Shown here one piece after another: positions 4,132-57,127 of a DNA stretch of 64,000 nt. Position 1 is the first letter of the stretch; each line of letters begins with the position of its first letter. The DNA lies in contig DAOULV010000018.1 in the NCBI GenBank assembly GCA_034416335.1, positions 38,788-102,787 on the forward strand, read 5' to 3'. Made by a program: the position numbers and the translations under genes. The DNA comes from Dehalococcoidales bacterium (GTDB taxonomy: Bacteria > Chloroflexota > Dehalococcoidia > Dehalococcoidales > UBA2162). A model generated the notes under the pieces. The model was not told where the DNA came from, made no database searches, and saw only the letters and a program-made list of their open reading frames with translations.

Positions 4132-4328
4132 AAAAATACTCCTTCCTAAGTATTGAAATCATAGTAATATTGCAGACAGATTTTATTAATTCGTGATAAA
4201 AACCAGTGGTGATACCAGTATATTGTCTGGATATTTCAATGTCAATGATAATGCCCTTTCGTTGAGTGCTGCAGGATACTATCGGTTTTGGTTGTGATTT
4301 TTGGGTTCACCCCCTTTCTCCCCCTCAA

Positions 4329-4957
4329 GGCGTTGCCCTATAAATGGTACTTGCCTTAAAAGTAAGGTAGTTGCCTCAAAAGTATCTGATTATGGGAGGT
4401 ATTATTAATGCTTCCTGTAATCAGGATAAAAGTATTCCATTATCTCAAGATATATGTGTTTGTATTATTGATATATACTACCTTACTCTGGGTACTGACT
4501 AGATTCCCTATAAACGATTCATCATTTCGTGTAATAGCCACTATCGGATACTATTTGGTATATATTGGTTTAGCATCTATCGCAATAGCTTTACTCGCTG
4601 TTCTTAAAAGACTTTATAAGTATAAAAAAGAAGATAGCAAAGATAAGAATAGCGATAAATCCATCGCTGATTTGGCTATTGATTTGGGTAGTATCTGTAA
4701 TTCCTTCACTAATAAGCTTTCTTTGATATTCAATAAGATTAATCACGTCATAAATTTTATACACAATAACTCCGAGAGAAAATAAAGATGCTAGACCTTT
4801 ACTAATATTATTACCCAATGCAACAATACCTCCAAGTGATAGTTTGAACATTATATGGAATAGATGCAGATATGTATATAGTTATTAACAGACTTTTAAG
4901 GCAAAATAGGGTGTTGCCCCAAAAGTAAGGAGAAAATAAGACTTTTAAGGCAACGTC
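4329..4957. mobile_element. MITE-like non-autonomous insertion (629 bp) with imperfect terminal inverted repeats and 9-bp target-site duplication
   Basis: The flanks 4283-4328 and 4958-5012 together reconstitute the intact REP element seen at 38053-38141. ccccctcaa is duplicated at 4320-4328 and 4958-4966. The ends read GGCGTTGCCCTATAAAT and, on the reverse complement, GACGTTGCCTTAAAAGT. The interior is AT-rich and has no transposase. Confidence 0.7.
4408..4785 (+). CDS. Small 2-TM membrane protein carried inside the MITE-like element
   Basis: 125 aa ORF with a GGGAGG RBS 8 nt upstream. It has two hydrophobic helices followed by a Lys/Asp-rich tail. No recognisable family. Confidence 0.5.
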   Translation: MLPVIRIKVFHYLKIYVFVLLIYTTLLWVLTRFPINDSSFRVIATIGYYLVYIGLASIAIALLAVLKRLYKYKKEDSKDKNSDKSIADLAIDLGSICNSFTNKLSLIFNKINHVINFIHNNSERK

Positions 4958-5215
4958 CCCCCTCAAACAGTTGCTATATTCAGCAGAGGTATTTCGATTG
5001 TTTGATGGGGTAAGGTATATATAAGTAACCAGAGGTAAACAGAACCTGATGCGAACGTTGTTGACAGCGAATTGGCTCTGTGTCAAAATAAGTCGGTTAT
5101 TAGCTGCATCAGTAAATTTTTTTCTGCATTTTACCCTGCATCATTCGGACCCCTCGAATGAATTAACGTCGGGGTAACGATTGTAAAAAAGATACCGTAG
5201 TAAGGAGGTCGTATT

Positions 5216-6442
5216 ATGCCTTTTGAATTATCACCGGCGGAGGAAATGGCACGAAAAATTGCCCGCGAATATTGTGAGAAATACATCATTCCCCGCCGTA
5301 AGGAGTTGATGACCAACGACCAGGATATGTGGGATGAAGAAGCCCGCAGGCAGACCAGGGCAGGTCTCCATCTTCATATCGTCCCCCGCGAGGAAGGCGG
5401 GACCGGGATAGGATATGTCGCAAGCTGTATTACCATTGAAGAATTATGCGCAGCCTGGCCCGACCTTGCCATGGCTATCTACGGTGAATTTGCTTATTAC
5501 TTTGCCAATGCTACCGGAGGAGTGGTAGCGGAAAAATTTATGCCGGGTATCATCAGCGGCGACATCCTGGCTACTCCCGCCATCACCGAACCCAGCGGAG
5601 GTTCCGATATGCTGGGGCTCCAGGCTAACGCCAAGAAAGTAGACGGCGGCTGGGTACTTAACGGCAGAAAAGTCTTCCAGAGTGAAGGACATTATGCGGA
5701 TTTCGTAATGACCCTGGTTAAGACCGGAGATCCCAACGATCCCAGGACTCCCGGCGCCCGGTCGCTTACAGCGTTTATCGTTGAAAGAGAGTTCGACGGT
5801 TTCCGCGTCGGCAGACTTGAAAATACTCTGGGCAGGAAAGGCGACCTTACCGAGTTTGTTTTCGATAACTGTTTCGTACCGGACAGTCACGTAGTCGGCG
5901 GAGAAGCGGGAATCGGCCGCGGTCTCGGACCGGTTTTCGCGGCAGTCGGAGATATCGGACGCCTGACTATCTGCGGGATGCTTACCGGCATTTCACTCGG
6001 AGCGTATCGCACCGCAATGATGTATGCCAAGGAACGGAACCTTTACGGACGTCCGATATCGGAACTGCAGATGATACAAGCGCGCGTTGCCAAAATGGCT
6101 GTGGACCTCGAAGCCTCGCGCGCCCTCACCTACCGTGCCGCTTGGTTGCGGACAAGAGGGAAAAGGTGTGATGCCGAACAGGCGACCGCTAAGAATTTCG
6201 CCGAACAGGCAGCTATAAGGTGCGCCGAACACTGCGTAAAAATCCACGGCGCCTATGGCGTTCTCGAAGACTATATGCCACATCACTATTACAGGCACGT
6301 ACCCCTGAGATTCAGCGCCGGCGGTACCGAGGAATCCCTGGGTATAATGATAGCCAATGCCGCTTTTCGTAATGAAGCTAATCCCGACCTCAGCAGTAAT
6401 TCGATGGAAACAGCAGGCTGGTGGGGAAGGATGGAATGGTAA
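5216..6442 (+). CDS. Acyl-CoA dehydrogenase
   Basis: 408 aa. AAGGAGG RBS. ACAD motifs are present (TEPSGGSD, C-terminal IHGAYG), and the etfBA genes lie immediately downstream. Confidence 0.9.
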   Translation: MPFELSPAEEMARKIAREYCEKYIIPRRKELMTNDQDMWDEEARRQTRAGLHLHIVPREEGGTGIGYVASCITIEELCAAWPDLAMAIYGEFAYYFANATGGVVAEKFMPGIISGDILATPAITEPSGGSDMLGLQANAKKVDGGWVLNGRKVFQSEGHYADFVMTLVKTGDPNDPRTPGARSLTAFIVEREFDGFRVGRLENTLGRKGDLTEFVFDNCFVPDSHVVGGEAGIGRGLGPVFAAVGDIGRLTICGMLTGISLGAYRTAMMYAKERNLYGRPISELQMIQARVAKMAVDLEASRALTYRAAWLRTRGKRCDAEQATAKNFAEQAAIRCAEHCVKIHGAYGVLEDYMPHHYYRHVPLRFSAGGTEESLGIMIANAAFRNEANPDLSSNSMETAGWWGRMEW

Positions 6443-6481
6443 TGAATACTGCGGGATTAATAATAGGCGAGGAGTATTAGT

Positions 6482-7294
6482 ATGAAGCCATTGAATATAG
6501 TAGTCTGCGTCAAGCCTGTTCCCGACTCGCGATACTGGGACAGACTCAGCCTTGACACTAATACAAAACTGCTTCGGCGCGAGGGTATACCCATCATTAT
6601 GAACCCCCTGGATAAAAATGCAATCGAGGAAGCGCTGAAGATAAAAGAAGAACGCGGGGGAAAAGTAACCGTGATAAGTATGGGGCCGGACAGTACGCTC
6701 GACGTCCTTGCCTGGGCATATGCCCTGGGAGTCGATGATGCGGTCTTGCTTTCGGACAGGGCTTTCGCCGGAGCCGATACGCTGGCAACGGCCTATGTAA
6801 TCGCTACCGGTGTCAAGAAAATCGGTGACGTGGATATGGTTATCCTCGGTAATGAGAGTCTGGACGGAAGTACCGCTCAGGTCGGTCCCCAGGTAGCGGA
6901 GTTCCTCGGTATGCCCCACCTGACAAATGTAGAAGAAATAAATTTCGTCGACGATGATACCGTACACGTAAAATGTAAGATAGAGAGCGGACATATGCTG
7001 GTAGAAGCCAAACTGCCGGTAACCCTGGCGGTCAACAGCGAGATAAACGATCCCAGGATTCCTCCGGTTTTCGGCGCTCTCTGGGCTACGGAGAAAGAAA
7101 GCACCAAATACACCGCTGGCGACATGGATGTAGACGAGAATAAAATCGGTCTTGCCGGTTCACCTTCTTACGTTCCCGAGGTTTCCAACATAGAAACGCA
7201 GCGAAAGGGTGAGGTTATCAGCGGCGACCCTGCCGACATTGCCCGGCAGCTGGTAGAAAAACTTAAAGCCGACGGAGTACTTCCCGAGGTATAA
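6482..7294 (+). CDS. etfB: Electron transfer flavoprotein beta subunit
   Basis: 270 aa. The N-terminus NIVVCVKPVPD is typical of EtfB, and the gene is adjacent to etfA. Confidence 0.9.
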   Translation: MKPLNIVVCVKPVPDSRYWDRLSLDTNTKLLRREGIPIIMNPLDKNAIEEALKIKEERGGKVTVISMGPDSTLDVLAWAYALGVDDAVLLSDRAFAGADTLATAYVIATGVKKIGDVDMVILGNESLDGSTAQVGPQVAEFLGMPHLTNVEEINFVDDDTVHVKCKIESGHMLVEAKLPVTLAVNSEINDPRIPPVFGALWATEKESTKYTAGDMDVDENKIGLAGSPSYVPEVSNIETQRKGEVISGDPADIARQLVEKLKADGVLPEV

Positions 7295-21734: not shown

Positions 21735-22628
21735 CTATGGGGTATCCCTCCTAGCTCTCCATTGTGTATGTTCTCTTGAAAATGCGTTTTCAGCATCACC
21801 TACAAATTTTGAAAATTCTTTTTCATCTTTGATTTCCGAATGCGCCGCTCGTACAATACTAATCTCATGGGCTGTAAAAATGTATGAAGTAGCCAAATCT
21901 TGAAAACGTTTTGCTTGTATCCAAGCTACAACAGATGCTGCTAATGTTGAGAATATACCTGTGGGGTAATATAGCCATTCAGGAACAAAGATTCTTATAA
22001 TAGCAGAAGATATCGCACATATCTGAAAAGCGATCATGACATAGAACCAAATATTGCCTCTATGTTTATTTTTAGAAGACGTGTTCGTATACCAAGCTCT
22101 TTGATGGTCAATTCTATTAGTAAGATAGATGTTTTTTCTTTGTTCAAAATCAAGTTCTCTGATATAATCCATAGATTCAGTTATTTGTTCACGGTCAGAA
22201 GAACCGTTATTGAAATATTTACAAATATCGCTTACTTCTCCGAGTATTCTTTTTAATTCGCTTAATAATAGTGCTCTTGCCGTATCATCATCATACGGTT
22301 CTGCTTTCATCATATATCTCCAGCAAATAGTTTTTATTGATTCAGTAGCAGACCTGGCAAGATACCACAATCTGTCATATCTTTTTAACACTAGTATATA
22401 AGAATATATAGGTACGATTAGCAGTATAGTAGCTGTGATTATAGACAAGGTTATTACATCACTAGGGAAGATAGAGAATATGGCTGCTAACGATAGTAAA
22501 ATCAGGATGGAACCTATCCCGATATAATGGTATCTTTGTGTAATCTTTGAAACATGACTAGTTTCTTTATATAAGGCTGGATATACTGAAGAATCTAATT
22601 TCAAATCATTCATGTTCATTCTTCTCAA
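21735..22628 (-). CDS. Double SLATT / DUF4231-like 4-TM membrane protein (putative effector)
   Basis: 297 aa. Two 2-TM hairpins (about aa 35-85 and 195-245) are each followed by an amphipathic helix (W..ARSATESIK..WRY and RFQDLATSYIFTAHEI). The start overlaps the upstream gene's stop (ATGAATGA). Alternative ATG starts at 22619 and 22613. Confidence 0.65.
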   Translation of the reverse strand: MRRMNMNDLKLDSSVYPALYKETSHVSKITQRYHYIGIGSILILLSLAAIFSIFPSDVITLSIITATILLIVPIYSYILVLKRYDRLWYLARSATESIKTICWRYMMKAEPYDDDTARALLLSELKRILGEVSDICKYFNNGSSDREQITESMDYIRELDFEQRKNIYLTNRIDHQRAWYTNTSSKNKHRGNIWFYVMIAFQICAISSAIIRIFVPEWLYYPTGIFSTLAASVVAWIQAKRFQDLATSYIFTAHEISIVRAAHSEIKDEKEFSKFVGDAENAFSREHTQWRARRDTP

Positions 22629-24738
22629 ATAATATTACATCATAATTTTCTTTTAATTCTGTAGAAGCCTTTTGGCGAAAACAGGAAATCACCTCATTGG
22701 CAAAATTGAACAAGGTTTTAGTTATTTCAGTACAGCTATATTCAGGAGAATATATAAATAGATCAGGAAAATTTACAGCGAGATATTCTAAAGGTGTGTG
22801 TAATAAGTTATGTGAAAAGCGTAACAGATCTGCTATCTTAACCATTGTTTCAAGTGTTCGCTCAGGTAATCTATAAAATGAGGGCGATTCGAAAATATTA
22901 AATATGTCTATTAAACATTCATCATATTTATTGGGAGTTTTCCCCATACAAAGAGCAACTCGCCTTATAATGCATGGAAGGCAATCTCCATCGTGAATAC
23001 CTTGATAATCAAAGATATCTAACCTCTTGGCTAATATTTTTACTCTAGAGTAGTTATAACATGAACTTGTAAATGGAATAATAACTCTAGATAATCTTTT
23101 GTTTGCAATATATTTAACGATTTGACCTTTAGTTTTATATTTATAAGGATTCGAGATTGAAATATTAAGGTCAAATACCGAATTTATAGTAGATTGATAC
23201 GTTTCAATGAATTTAGGGTGAACAGTATGGGTGTTTACATGAGATTCTGACATAAGTGGATTAATAGCTATGGGTCCATTCTCAAACATAAATATATTAG
23301 TATTTCCTACCTCGACTGAGACTGCATAAGCTATTGATAAATAAAAGAATGACCTTAAATGTTGGAGAAATAAATCTCTATGGTAACCTTTTAACTTATA
23401 GGAACCCTTCTTCTTCCTTGAAGGTTGCCAAGATACTTTCAAATGAGGTAGATCTGTATTCATTACATGGTTCATCTGGTCTAATAACCTTGTCTGAATC
23501 CCTGATAAATTACCGGAGGCATAACTAATTAGACTAGGTGAATATCCTTTACTTATTGCCCATATTATTCCAGCAGCGCTATCTATGCCGCCTGAAAATA
23601 GGCAACTGCATCCATTTTCCACTTTAGTGAATTTGATATTTTCAACTTTCGGTTCGTTATTAGCGGAAAAATATAGATTAATAGTATCTCTTGAGAGATA
23701 CGATATTGTTTTTGATAACGATGATTTTTGACTTTGCCAAATTTCCGGGTGACGAACTGGTATATATACATCAAGTTCTCGATAATAGTCAATATCCCTG
23801 TCTATGTATAAATCAGATATATATATAACAAAAGCTATCTCTAATAAATCACGCGTTAGGGAGTTTAAGGGGTGTCCTACGAAAGATTCAATATCTGATA
23901 AATCGAATGATACGTTTTTATCTTTGCCATTGAGGATTATTCTAATGGCGTTATCATCTACAATATAATCTTCGGAAAGTTTTTTTATAGGAATTTTCCC
24001 AACGATAACATTAATTCTAGTTTTTTGATTTCTTTTTCCTGAATTATCATCACGCCAACTAAGGAAAGGGAGTTTCTCCTTAAATCCAGTAGAAATTCGT
24101 TTAATTTTCGAGTTAATGCGACCTTTTGCTTGAGAATCAATGAAATATGGTACAAGTGATTTGGCTATATCATTACATTTACTAAATATAGCTTGTCTTA
24201 AAATATTTTGTTCATCTGTACTAACAAGTTTACCGTTAAGGAATTGGTATGAATATCCGAAATCCGTGCTGCCCTGAGATTTCCCACGAAGAATAGTCAT
24301 ACTTTGGTTAAAAAGAAAGTATGAAAGGAAAGTTTCAAATATAGTGGTTAGATTAATGTCTTTAGATAATGAATAAATCTCTTTAATAAACTGAATATTA
24401 CTAAAATTTTGTCCCTGTTTATCAGGGAATAATCTGGGGGAATCTAATAGTGTTAATGATATTGTTTGCTTAAAAGATCGTTCAATAATGTCACCAAGAG
24501 GAAATGTATATAGACTTGGATTATCTCTGGTAACGATATCATATATTAAATCGGAGAACGAATAAGGCTCGAGTTTAATTTCATCAGAGAAATCATCTTC
24601 ATTAACAAATGCAGAAAAACGTTCTTCGTGTAAACAGCGCAGTAAAGCATTTAAACTTACGGCACATATATATAATTTTTTGGAAGTATCATTTATCTTA
24701 TATGAAGCAAAAGCTTGTGTTAGCAAATAATCAATCAT
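22606..24738 (-). CDS. Large QueC-like PP-loop ATP-pyrophosphatase fusion protein (N-terminal ~290 aa unknown)
   Basis: 710 aa. PP-loop LFSGGIDS at aa 380-387 (plus 23578-23595). The pre-PP-loop segment DLLEIAFVIYISD..IPV is similar to QatC-type proteins. C-terminal Cys cluster C560/C586xxC589/C597. Confidence 0.7.
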   Translation of the reverse strand: MIDYLLTQAFASYKINDTSKKLYICAVSLNALLRCLHEERFSAFVNEDDFSDEIKLEPYSFSDLIYDIVTRDNPSLYTFPLGDIIERSFKQTISLTLLDSPRLFPDKQGQNFSNIQFIKEIYSLSKDINLTTIFETFLSYFLFNQSMTILRGKSQGSTDFGYSYQFLNGKLVSTDEQNILRQAIFSKCNDIAKSLVPYFIDSQAKGRINSKIKRISTGFKEKLPFLSWRDDNSGKRNQKTRINVIVGKIPIKKLSEDYIVDDNAIRIILNGKDKNVSFDLSDIESFVGHPLNSLTRDLLEIAFVIYISDLYIDRDIDYYRELDVYIPVRHPEIWQSQKSSLSKTISYLSRDTINLYFSANNEPKVENIKFTKVENGCSCLFSGGIDSAAGIIWAISKGYSPSLISYASGNLSGIQTRLLDQMNHVMNTDLPHLKVSWQPSRKKKGSYKLKGYHRDLFLQHLRSFFYLSIAYAVSVEVGNTNIFMFENGPIAINPLMSESHVNTHTVHPKFIETYQSTINSVFDLNISISNPYKYKTKGQIVKYIANKRLSRVIIPFTSSCYNYSRVKILAKRLDIFDYQGIHDGDCLPCIIRRVALCMGKTPNKYDECLIDIFNIFESPSFYRLPERTLETMVKIADLLRFSHNLLHTPLEYLAVNFPDLFIYSPEYSCTEITKTLFNFANEVISCFRQKASTELKENYDVILFEKNEHE

Positions 24739-24780
24739 AAGGCAATCCTAAAATATTGAAAATGGATTATCGGGGTATGT

Positions 24781-25389
24781 CTAGCCACTTACTCCACGCC
24801 TTCTCTCAATTTGTTTTGTCCTTTTACTTAAGACTTTAGCAAATTCTGCATCGGGGTCTTCTAACCAATCTTGTAAAGCAGCAAAGTCAGGATTGTAAGC
24901 GATGTCTTCTTGCCACGATTCCTGTGTAGTAAAAGGACCTTCGGAAGCTAGTTTATAGTATTCACTTATTGTATTTTCCGAATTTGATTTGGGTTTTCTT
25001 ATAGCATTGACTATATTCTTAGTATTCCATTTTACCTGGTGGTTAAAAACCTGTAGTTCTCGTGGTAGTCTTTGCGATCCATGTGGACTTACTACAATTA
25101 TGTTTTTATCCATCTCAAGTGCAATTTCTATTTCTTTATGAATCCATTTACGATGTTTGGTATACATACCAGCGATAATTAAAACAGATTTAGCAGGACG
25201 TATTTGCCTTCTTAAAGAAGCTTCGAGTTGTGATTCACTCTTCCTAGCGAACCTACGATCTTGGGGGACACTATAATTCCGAAATTTAAAACGCTTGTGA
25301 TCTGATAACAATTCAGAAAGGCGTTCGTAATCACTACTACGACTCCATACATGACTTATGAAAATAGGATAACTTTTTAACTTTGGCAT
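24781..25389 (-). CDS. TIR-like protein (DUF1863 / ThsB-like) with C-terminal extension
   Basis: 202 aa. YPIFISHVW..DY N-terminal strand, the SVLIIAG strand, and WIHKEIEIA with a conserved Glu. First gene of the operon. Confidence 0.7.
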   Translation of the reverse strand: MPKLKSYPIFISHVWSRSSDYERLSELLSDHKRFKFRNYSVPQDRRFARKSESQLEASLRRQIRPAKSVLIIAGMYTKHRKWIHKEIEIALEMDKNIIVVSPHGSQRLPRELQVFNHQVKWNTKNIVNAIRKPKSNSENTISEYYKLASEGPFTTQESWQEDIAYNPDFAALQDWLEDPDAEFAKVLSKRTKQIERRRGVSG

Positions 25390-31189: not shown

Positions 31190-31700
31190 GTTGTCATTGC
31201 GAGTCCCTGATTTTTGCAGGCGAACCACTACAACCGGTACCTTCCCCCTTGATGGGGGAAGGTCAGGGCCTGCCCCGTACTTGATACGGGGATGAGGGTG
31301 ACATAAACCTAATTTTCACCCTCACCTTAATCCTCTCCCATCAAGGGAGAGGAAACAAGAAGTATGTTATTCGATAAATTATGCATTACCTGGTACTGGA
31401 GACTGCCATTCGCCTTCGGCGAACCTTCGGCGGACTCCTCGCAATGATCCGCCTGCGCTAAAGCTACGGCAGGCAGGGGATGGATTCGTCCTTCGACAGG
31501 CTCAGGACGAACGGGAAAAGGCGATAAGCTCAGGACGAACGGGAGCGGGATCTCGTAATAACGAAGAAGGAACGGATTAACATGGGCTTCGTCCCTCTCT
31601 CAAACTCTTTCCCCCTCGAATATATGGAAACATTTCGGCTGGAGAAGGCAACTATTTGAGGGGGATAAAGGCCTGCCCGCCATACAAGACTTCGGCAGGC
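31190..31700. repeat. Cluster of interspersed REP-like elements (several families)
   Basis: Contains copies of the caccctcacc..cctctcccatcaagggagagg element, the ttcgacaggctcaggacgaacgg element, and the ccccctc..tttgaggggg hairpin element seen elsewhere in the window. Confidence 0.75.
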
Positions 31701-31745
31701 GGGGGGTGAATTAATAATCACAACCAATAATAATGCCAAATAAAA

Positions 31746-38052: not shown

Positions 38053-38141
38053 ATTTTGGTTGTGATTTTCGGTTCATCCCCTTTATCCCCCTCAAACAGT
38101 TGGAGTATTCAGCAGAAATATTTCGATTGTTTGAGGGGGAA
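38053..38141. repeat. Intact copy of the hairpin REP element that is interrupted at 4283-5012
   Basis: cgattttggttgtgattttcggttcatcccctttatccccctcaaacagttggagtattcagcagaaatatttcgattgtttgaggggg. The ccctcaaacag / ctgtttgaggg-type inverted repeat forms the hairpin. Confidence 0.85.
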
Positions 38142-38520
38142 AGAGTTTGAGAGAGGGGCGAAGCCCCTCTCTCTTGTTTACTCCCCCTTTCTGGCCTGGA
38201 AAGTCCTCCAGCCACCAACGATGGTTCTGACCGGAAAGGGGGCAGGGGGGTAAGGTGAGTATAAACAGCCAGATGCAAACAAAACCATAAAAAATGCAGG
38301 ATTTTCTTGGCTGGAGAAGGGATTTAAGAATTAGGAGGGGGCATTACAAAGCCCCCTCCTAAGGACCTTCCCCCTATCATACTGGACGGATAACTCTACA
38401 ATATGGTGGTTTTGTATGAGAGGGGGACCAAGGGGGTGAGTATATTTAAAATCACGCCGGATAATGTAGATAATACTGAAACCTAGTGCCAAGCAGCGCT
38501 TAATTATTCGGAATAACACG

Positions 38521-57050: not shown

Positions 57051-57127
57051 CGGGGTGTAGCGCAGCCAGGTAGCGCACCTGAATGGGGTTCAGGTGGTCG
57101 GAGGTTCAAATCCTCTCACCCCGACCA
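57051..57127 (+). tRNA. tRNA-Pro (anticodon GGG), CCA encoded
   Basis: Cloverleaf read by hand. Acceptor CGGGGTG/CACCCCG, D arm GCGC-AGCCAGGTA-GCGC, anticodon stem CCTGA/TCAGG. The anticodon loop is A-T-GGG-G-T. T arm GGAGG-TTCAAAT-CCTCT, followed by ACCA. Confidence 0.9.

Follow-up and report, generated by a model that had tools for sequence, protein, structure and literature searches.

A 629-bp insertion in a palindromic host repeat

The window analyzed here is the whole 64,000-nt stretch of contig DAOULV010000018.1 from a Dehalococcoidales bacterium, and all feature positions are counted in it. In the spacer between an amidohydrolase gene and an acyl-CoA dehydrogenase gene, an intergenic repeat resembling the palindromic intergenic repeats of bacteria (REP) is interrupted by an element of 629 bp, located at 4329-4957. 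The element has its own characteristic ends, carries one small open reading frame (ORF) and is flanked by a direct duplication of 9 bp. In detail, the features of the locus and the related copies of the host repeat are the following:

4283-4328 (+), host repeat, left part; REP-like, intergenic, approximately 89 bp in full; 90% identical to 38053-38095 over 50 nt
4320-4328 (no strand), left copy of the target-site duplication CCCCCTCAA; identical to 4958-4966
4329-4957 (+), non-autonomous transposon, 629 bp; bounds taken from the empty-site alignment and in agreement with the family terminus GGCTTTGCC at 35 genomic and 11 metagenome loci
4329-4383 (+), left end of the element, terminus GGCGTTGCC and three direct 13-bp sites at 4333-4345 (degenerate), 4351-4363 and 4371-4383
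4395-4400 (+), Shine-Dalgarno-like GGGAGG, 7 nt 5′ of the ATG; the homologues on contigs L042-L044 share the GGAGG/GGGAGG spacing
4408-4785 (+), passenger ORF of 125 aa, with two predicted transmembrane helices and a C-terminal helix
4892-4957 (−), right end of the element, terminus GACGTTGCC read inward from 4957, with sites at 4941-4953 (−), 4914-4926 (+, inverted) and 4892-4904 (−)
4958-4966 (no strand), right copy of the target-site duplication, from the sequence as read and from the empty-site alignment
4958-5012 (+), host repeat, right part, which keeps the complete hairpin (inverted repeat); 88.7% identical to 38087-38139
31584-31727 (−), third and uninterrupted copy of the host repeat, with one 9-mer at 31656-31664 and a 32-bp hairpin insert of its own
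38053-38141 (+), intact copy of the host repeat, representing the empty site, with one CCCCCTCAA at 38087-38095

The flanks of the element (4270-4328 joined to 4958-5025) match the continuous segment 38040-38150 end to end, and their sole overlap is the 9-mer CCCCCTCAA. An earlier note on this DNA had described the repeat at 38053-38141 as continuous, and the repeat at 4283-5012 as split with the 9-mer on both sides; the alignment confirmed both descriptions. The duplication (ccccctcaa) around the 629-bp insert is perfect, that is, 9/9. The third copy of the host repeat had been missed in that note and surfaced in a relaxed search. As the 9-mer is single in both uninterrupted copies, the duplication stems from the insertion and is not a part of the repeat consensus.

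The host repeat copy at 38053-38141 folds into a hairpin with a 24-bp stem (z = −6.5), with the target 9-mer at the base of its 5′ arm. Three copies of the repeat are found per 64 kb and none in the orthologous intergenic region of three relatives, and the repeat appears to be dispersed or itself mobile. When the entire window was compared with Rfam at gathering thresholds, the one match was a tRNA-Pro at 57051, in agreement with the tRNA scan, so a known RNA or tRNA at the insertion site was rejected; the host repeat does not correspond to any described RNA family. The 38-kb copy (region 38053-38180) has a second hairpin module, GAGAGAGGGGCGAAGCCCCTCTCTC, after it, and similar modules are located near the insertions of two related elements (L027 and L016).

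The adjoining acyl-CoA dehydrogenase has orthologues in three Chloroflexi at 94%, 90%, and 88% identity, with the 90% orthologue belonging to “Chloroflexi bacterium RBG_13_46_14.” The gene order is kept in all three relatives, that is, nitroreductase and amidohydrolase, followed by the genes for acyl-CoA dehydrogenase and electron-transfer flavoprotein in divergent orientation. The spacer between the amidohydrolase and the acyl-CoA dehydrogenase is 325-364 bp in the three relatives versus 1084 bp in the window, and both the 629-bp element and the host repeat are absent from the aligned orthologous spacers. The locus thus has a nested history, in which the repeat arrived first and the element was inserted into it later.

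Two promoter-proximal blocks are conserved between the spacer of the window and those of the three relatives, and promoter-like sites flank the insertion (4245-4217 on the minus strand and 5061-5089 on the plus strand). The insertion sits in the non-conserved spacer of these two divergent promoters and is probably neutral. It seems to matter little to this genome, to which it adds one gene for a small membrane protein. Presence/absence polymorphism was addressed through look-ups of identical flanking proteins, which returned solely the occupied locus. Two other records with the ORF of the window, that is, GCA_964464295.1 and the Logan assembly of SRR14802572, represent the same locus at 99.99% identity, and the same two junctions are present in all three.

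The element is AT-rich, as the earlier note had stated, with a GC content of 0.323 versus 0.484 for the window. The inverted ends reported there as CGTTGCC[CT]TA[TA]AA are present as read, but the true termini are located two bases further out, with GGCGTTGCC at 4329 and GACGTTGCC at 4957. Similarly, the coordinates reported for six copies of a 13-bp motif are right, and five of the copies are exact matches to TTGCCNNAAAAGT (4351, 4371, and 4914 on the plus strand, 4892 and 4941 on the minus strand), whereas the sixth at 4333 (TTGCCCTATAAAT) is degenerate with two mismatches. Every exact copy of the motif in the window falls within the element. With at most one mismatch allowed, there are seven matches per 64-kb window versus 1.47 ± 1.21 in shuffled sequences, and none of the 100 shuffles reaches seven.

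The passenger ORF had been described in the note as a small gene preceded by a ribosome-binding site and encoding a 125-aa protein with two transmembrane segments. In accordance with this, GGGAGG precedes the gene, and the hydropathy profile has two hydrophobic segments at approximately residues 9-32 and 42-68. The AlphaFold model, which is of low confidence (predicted local distance difference test, pLDDT, 64; predicted template modeling score, pTM, 0.30), places helices at residues 4-32, 38-76, and 83-124. A HMMER search of 1.84 billion representatives returned four distant full-length homologues (118-126 aa, 28-32% identity), with the conserved positions spread over the whole length, and the ORF therefore belongs to a real gene family. 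In a word-indexed search of 5.8 billion proteins, the ORF matched itself alone.

The homologues are located on sediment contigs of less than 1.1 kb, which are too short for context. None of the 13-bp sites is found on these contigs, and therefore the gene exists outside the transposon and was captured by it. The Pfam search with the ORF showed a sub-threshold match to SieB alone (E = 0.0042, 17 bits versus a cutoff of 26), and the PHROG and PADLOC searches gave zero matches. The scan of the left end with the sigma-70 consensus, which may not suit this phylum, did not find a promoter for the ORF.

Located 3′ of the ORF (4786-4885), and of its homologues in L041, L042, and L044, is a short stretch of conserved sequence (agatatgtatatag or a similar one). 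On two of these contigs, L042 and L044, the stretch is followed by a second ORF, and in the window this position is occupied by the right end of the transposon; the captured cargo may be only part of an original gene pair. In L041, a contig of 762 bp with the homologue P0123, the first approximately 125 bases are the reverse complement of the last approximately 125. This is either a hairpin-type assembly artefact or a pair of long terminal inverted repeats around the homologous gene.

The transposon family and its transposase

The family of the element was searched in one genome per prokaryotic species, using two 13-bp motifs at the observed spacing of 20 bp. The scan yielded 35 genomic loci, against approximately 0.07 estimated by chance, plus one viral contig. 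When aligned on the motif pair, most of these loci share the terminus GGCTTTGCC and three direct sites at +5, +23, and +43. A metagenome scan for the terminus variant of the window, GGCGTTGCC, added 11 more loci.

Complete elements, defined by a search for inward-facing termini, are 11 in number, with lengths of 86, 106, 106, 516, 629, 1107, 1566, 1871, 4401, 4487, and 4544 bp (the smallest members being L037 with 86 bp, and L017 and L030 with 106 bp). All 11 have the sites at +5, +23, and +43. The 9-bp flanking duplications are perfect in ten of them and match at eight of the nine positions in the eleventh, and all their sequences differ. Duplications of constant length and differing sequence argue for transposition and not for site-specific recombination.

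The other end shows a terminal site at +5 and an inverted site at +32, with a further direct site at +54 in the Dehalococcoidia clade. The right-end layout of the window element (+5, +32 inverted, and +54) is an exact match to those of L020 and of the autonomous L027. The terminus and the positions of the sites are conserved base for base among the family loci. The 13-bp internal sites vary by lineage and match between both ends of one element (e.g., TTGACC.ATAAAGT at both ends of L019), which is the behavior expected of sites bound by a cognate protein. Based on these patterns, the 13-bp sites are putative transposase-binding sites.

In two loci the ends of neighboring copies abut, with exactly 9 bp between them (877/887 and 5373/5383 in L019, 7272/7282 in L006). 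These 9 bp are the flanking duplication itself, that is, acccctatg in L019 and agcctacgg in L006. The sharing of the duplication by abutting ends indicates that successive insertions re-used the same target beside a resident end.

The autonomous elements are 3-7 kb long (3.3-6.7 kb as measured) and contain passenger genes. A DDE transposase is carried by the versions of 3-4.5 kb, with a length of 418-448 aa in those of 4.4-4.5 kb, and is absent from the versions of 86-1566 bp with the same end architecture. By tblastn, the transposase was located beside family ends in L027, L008, L033, L006, L019, L005, L013, and L004, and C-terminal remnants of it are found in the short elements L015 and L053.

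The Pfam domains of the transposase are a SWIM zinc finger followed by DDE_Tnp_1, the SWIM N-terminal region being an extra part of approximately 90 aa. The best NCBIfam model is IS5_2, with scores of 120.6, 136.3, and 95.4 bits that remain under its cutoff of 140 bits. The nearest annotated relatives, from plasmids, are IS903B and ISVpa3, with approximately 24% identity in the catalytic region only. The DDE triad and the Y-(2)-R-(3)-E-(6)-K motif of the L027 transposase (D207, D282, E348, Y341, R344, and K355) are fully conserved in the alignment with IS903B. This comparison concerns the autonomous relatives, as no transposase is encoded in the window element.

With a threshold of E ≤ 1e-10, the transposase has matches in at least 7,994 protein clusters, whose source labels are “transposase” or “predicted nucleic acid-binding Zn finger protein” only. 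Literature searches linking SWIM to IS5, IS903, DDE_Tnp_1, or ISfinder, or one Pfam accession to the other, returned nothing relevant, with ISfinder itself not covered by them.

The transposases of L027 and L008 are 76% identical. These two loci come from metagenome-assembled genomes that are assigned to different phyla, L027 from one of Dehalococcoidales and L008 from one labeled “delta proteobacterium,” and both have the same fused restriction-modification cargo of approximately 890 aa, a likeness which suggests either a recent transfer between phyla or a binning error. In both, an antisense ORF of 510-532 aa is located opposite the transposase gene (5119-6717 on the minus strand in L027), with conserved length; these ORFs are probably spurious.

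Passenger genes and target sites

The cargo of the family is often related to restriction-modification. L027 and L008 have a fused HSDR_N/N6-methylase/specificity protein, L031 has HsdS and an N6 methylase, L003 an HsdS-like protein, and L009 an MT-A70 methylase. Other cargoes are a PD-Lambda-5_A/PDC-M38A-like protein in L019 and helix-turn-helix regulators in L006. In the short Dehalococcoidia elements L020 and L021, small two-helix membrane proteins are located directly after the left end. A cargo family common to these two and to the ORF of the window was considered and rejected, as the proteins are unrelated by hhalign (probability 0.7%).

The reconstructed empty sites of four Dehalococcoidia-type insertions (L020, L021, L027, and L037) form a C-rich/G-rich hairpin with z of −2.5 to −3.3, and in all four the duplication straddles the hairpin loop. 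The left-end flanks of further Dehalococcoidia-type loci likewise have the context ...CCCCTCTCC-TTNNAGG. The window target is the base of the 5′ arm of a hairpin-forming repeat and not the loop. The preference for hairpins is not seen in the acidobacterial and archaeal members. It may reflect the specificity of the transposase, or just the places where insertions are tolerated.

A viral contig (L038, from IMG/VR) has a left-end-like triple site at 4889-5238, with a phage capsid gene cluster directly after it and, on the other side, ORFs judged by their sequence to be methyltransferase-like and sugar epimerase-like. No transposase is found within 8 kb of this triple site, which could be an isolated end or mark an insertion at the edge of a prophage. 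The idea of a transposable phage, which this contig prompted, is not supported: a full-length transposase is present on seven other viral contigs, and the three of them in which both termini were located hold compact elements of 3.3-6.7 kb.

Nature of the element and rival explanations

The stretch 4329-4957 very probably derives from a cut-and-paste DDE transposon whose interior was replaced, leaving a non-autonomous element; the large family of its parent is a distant relative of the IS903 group (IS5 family). The interpretation given in the earlier note is essentially right. Its claim of a non-autonomous element is supported by the family ends together with the lack of a transposase between them, and for the same reason the element would move only in trans. 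Its term for the element, that is, “MITE-like” (for miniature inverted-repeat transposable element, MITE), is appropriate in respect of the missing transposase, the ends of autonomous type, and the duplication, and it is not in respect of miniature size and coding content. With 629 bp, a protein-coding gene and one known copy, the element fits the label loosely, and a non-autonomous cargo transposon describes it better. The phrase “caught in the act” in the note is more than the evidence bears out, the other two assemblies with the element being the same locus.

By analogy with IS903-type DDE transposases, the transposase would bind the 13-bp TTGCCNNAAAAGT sites, probably via its SWIM N-terminal region. 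Three direct sites would be available to it at the left end, and one terminal, one inverted, and one direct site at the right end. The transposase would then pair the two unlike ends and cleave at the GGC termini, and the ends would be joined to target cuts staggered by 9 bp, the repair of the gaps yielding the CCCCCTCAA duplication. The window copy would have been inserted by a transposase acting in trans from an L027-like element, and would be movable only through such a transposase. It would have landed in the stem base of the REP-like hairpin repeat, with its one gene, for a small two-helix membrane protein, traveling as cargo. In the IS903 inverted repeat, transposase binding takes place at the inner part, and the outer bases have their role in catalysis. 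The repeated 13-bp unit of the family corresponds to this inner part, which fits the binding model.

The family belongs next to the IS903 group (IS903B, ISVpa3, and ISAba12) on the strength of its GGCTTTG terminus, its 9-bp duplication, and its catalytic signature, as the members of that group likewise have a DDE core with Y-R-E-K, a 9-bp duplication, and GGCTTTG termini. As in this group, the transposase gene reads toward one end and stops approximately 10-65 bp short of it. The IS903B end from a Klebsiella plasmid is GGCTTTGTTGAATAAATC, and its terminus is GGCTTTGTTG, compared with GGCTTTGCC in the family and GGCGTTGCC/GACGTTGCC in the window. On the other hand, the family is only approximately 24% identical to this group, scores below the IS5_2 cutoff, and has the SWIM N-terminus added. 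It has at least three transposase-type sites per end in place of the single inverted repeat of approximately 18 bp in IS903, and its elements of 3-7 kb with passengers differ from simple insertion sequences (IS) of approximately 1 kb with a single ORF. What separates the family from the IS903 group is its SWIM domain, its ends with multiple sites, and its cargo. In sum, the kind of element is well known, and the family appears to be a variant architecture that has not been named yet.

Among non-autonomous elements, ISAba12 and its 113-bp derivative MITEAba12 have the ends GGCTTTGTTGCACAAA and 9-bp duplications (PMC6382973). The window element resembles MITEAba12 and other bacterial MITEs in being non-autonomous and AT-rich, with IS903-type ends, a 9-bp duplication, and (putatively, in its own case) mobilization in trans (PMC6382973; definition in PMC9330008). 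It is unlike them in its length of 629 bp, the usual being less than approximately 300-500 bp and non-coding, in its conserved 125-aa ORF, and in its one known copy. Transporter IS (tIS) are IS derivatives with passenger genes between IS-type ends (PMC9330008). The autonomous L027, L019, and L006 fit this type, having passengers and a transposase between the ends, whereas the window element has a passenger and no transposase.

TnsB of Tn7 and MuA bind several subterminal sites, which are arranged differently at the two ends. In Tn7 and Mu the transposase is of the retroviral-integrase type, the duplications are of 5 bp, and accessory proteins are needed. The family shares with them the several subterminal sites and the different layout at each end. 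On the contrary, its transposase is DDE_Tnp_1 (IS4/IS5 type), its duplications are of 9 bp, and no accessory-type genes are found in the elements. IS1397 and ISKpn1, of the IS3 family, insert in palindromic intergenic repeats. Insertions of the present family are also found in palindromic repeats, with the duplication at the hairpin tip in L020, L021, L027, and L037; the preference differs in being limited to Dehalococcoidia-type hosts, and the window target differs in being the stem base and not the loop.

Several points weigh against the reading of the window element as a derivative of this family that is moved in trans. Its right terminus is GAC and not GGC, although positions 1-2 of that end vary in other members too. 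Its 9-mer does not show the hairpin-tip pattern CCYTNNNARG of the other Dehalococcoidia-type insertions. A tblastn search of the element and of the whole 64-kb window found no transposase homologue of this family, a result that agrees with the earlier note as far as the insert is concerned. Furthermore, one copy of this particular element is known (one per 64 kb, the other records being the same locus), and repeated mobility is therefore undemonstrated.

The last two points also favor a dead relic, that is, a single past insertion which is immobile for want of a compatible transposase in the genome and has intact ends because it is young. The ends are approximately 78% identical (by eye) to those of L027, the closest autonomous element seen. 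However, the duplication is perfect and the six sites are all preserved, relatives with 88-94% identity in the acyl-CoA dehydrogenase lack the insertion, which is thus recent on that scale, and the 11 other loci with the GGCGTTGCC terminus variant indicate that matching elements exist in nature. A dead relic is rather unlikely on this balance. More doubtful is an ORF that is not passive and gives an advantage to the element or the host, for example as a membrane effector of phage exclusion or abortive infection, or as a toxin. The family cargo is often defense-related (restriction-modification in L027, L008, L031, L003, and L009, and the PD-Lambda-5_A/PDC-M38A-like protein in L019), and this makes a role in defense or exclusion a reasonable guess, but only a guess. 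The weak SieB match and the small two-helix membrane proteins right after the left end in L020 and L021 point in the same direction. On the other side, PADLOC and PHROG gave no matches, the ORF is unrelated to the L020/L021 proteins (hhalign, 0.7%) with a model pLDDT of 64, and the contigs of its homologues are too short to show their context.

Two further explanations have a very remote probability. A site-specific integrative element would have the 9-bp repeat as the att crossover core of a tyrosine or serine recombinase and the 13-bp repeats as arm-type sites. The multiple repeats in mixed orientation do resemble integrase arm sites, and junction and target share GTTGC; however, the flanking 9-mers differ in all 11 complete members with no conserved core, no integrase is found in or near any family element, and the ends travel with a DDE transposase. 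The other explanation is that no insertion occurred, either because the long form of the repeat is ancestral and the short copies are deletions, or because the junction is an assembly chimera. Nothing specific speaks for it, apart from the fact that the three carrying assemblies may share one sample. A deletion that removes exactly one copy of the duplication together with an element having family-typical termini is implausible, there are two independent short copies, and the orthologues lack the 629 bp. The same junctions are present in the window, in GCA_964464295.1, and in the Logan assembly of SRR14802572.

With a non-autonomous transposon derivative as the preferred reading, a wider picture can be drawn tentatively, as one that we regard as possible and somewhat short of probable. 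The window element would be the smallest cargo-bearing member of a very large and apparently undescribed IS903-related clade, which has gained an N-terminal SWIM domain and has asymmetric, Tn7/Mu-like arrays of sites at its ends. This clade would move restriction-modification, defense, and small membrane-protein genes among Chloroflexi, Acidobacteria, Planctomycetes, Proteobacteria, and DPANN/Thermoplasmatota archaea. In Dehalococcoidia it would prefer the tips of REP-like hairpins, and it would re-use the same 9-bp target beside resident copies.

Uncultured Chloroflexi, Acidobacteria, and archaea contain the family in abundance, and its protein is just “transposase” in their database entries. 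A name for the family and a definition of its ends would help to annotate mobile DNA, and the movement of defense genes, more accurately in these lineages. Its compact ends (86-106 bp suffice in the smallest members) and single transposase would make a simple system in which to test the effect of additional binding sites and of a SWIM domain on a transposase of the IS5 type.

Elsewhere in the window, an AT-rich island (GC 0.32-0.37) is located at 21735-25389 on the minus strand. Its products are a two-helix membrane effector of the SLATT_1/SLATT_3 type (297 aa), a protein of 710 aa that contains a QueC-like domain, and a TIR protein of the ThsB type (202 aa). This region looks like a defense island that is unrelated to the transposon.

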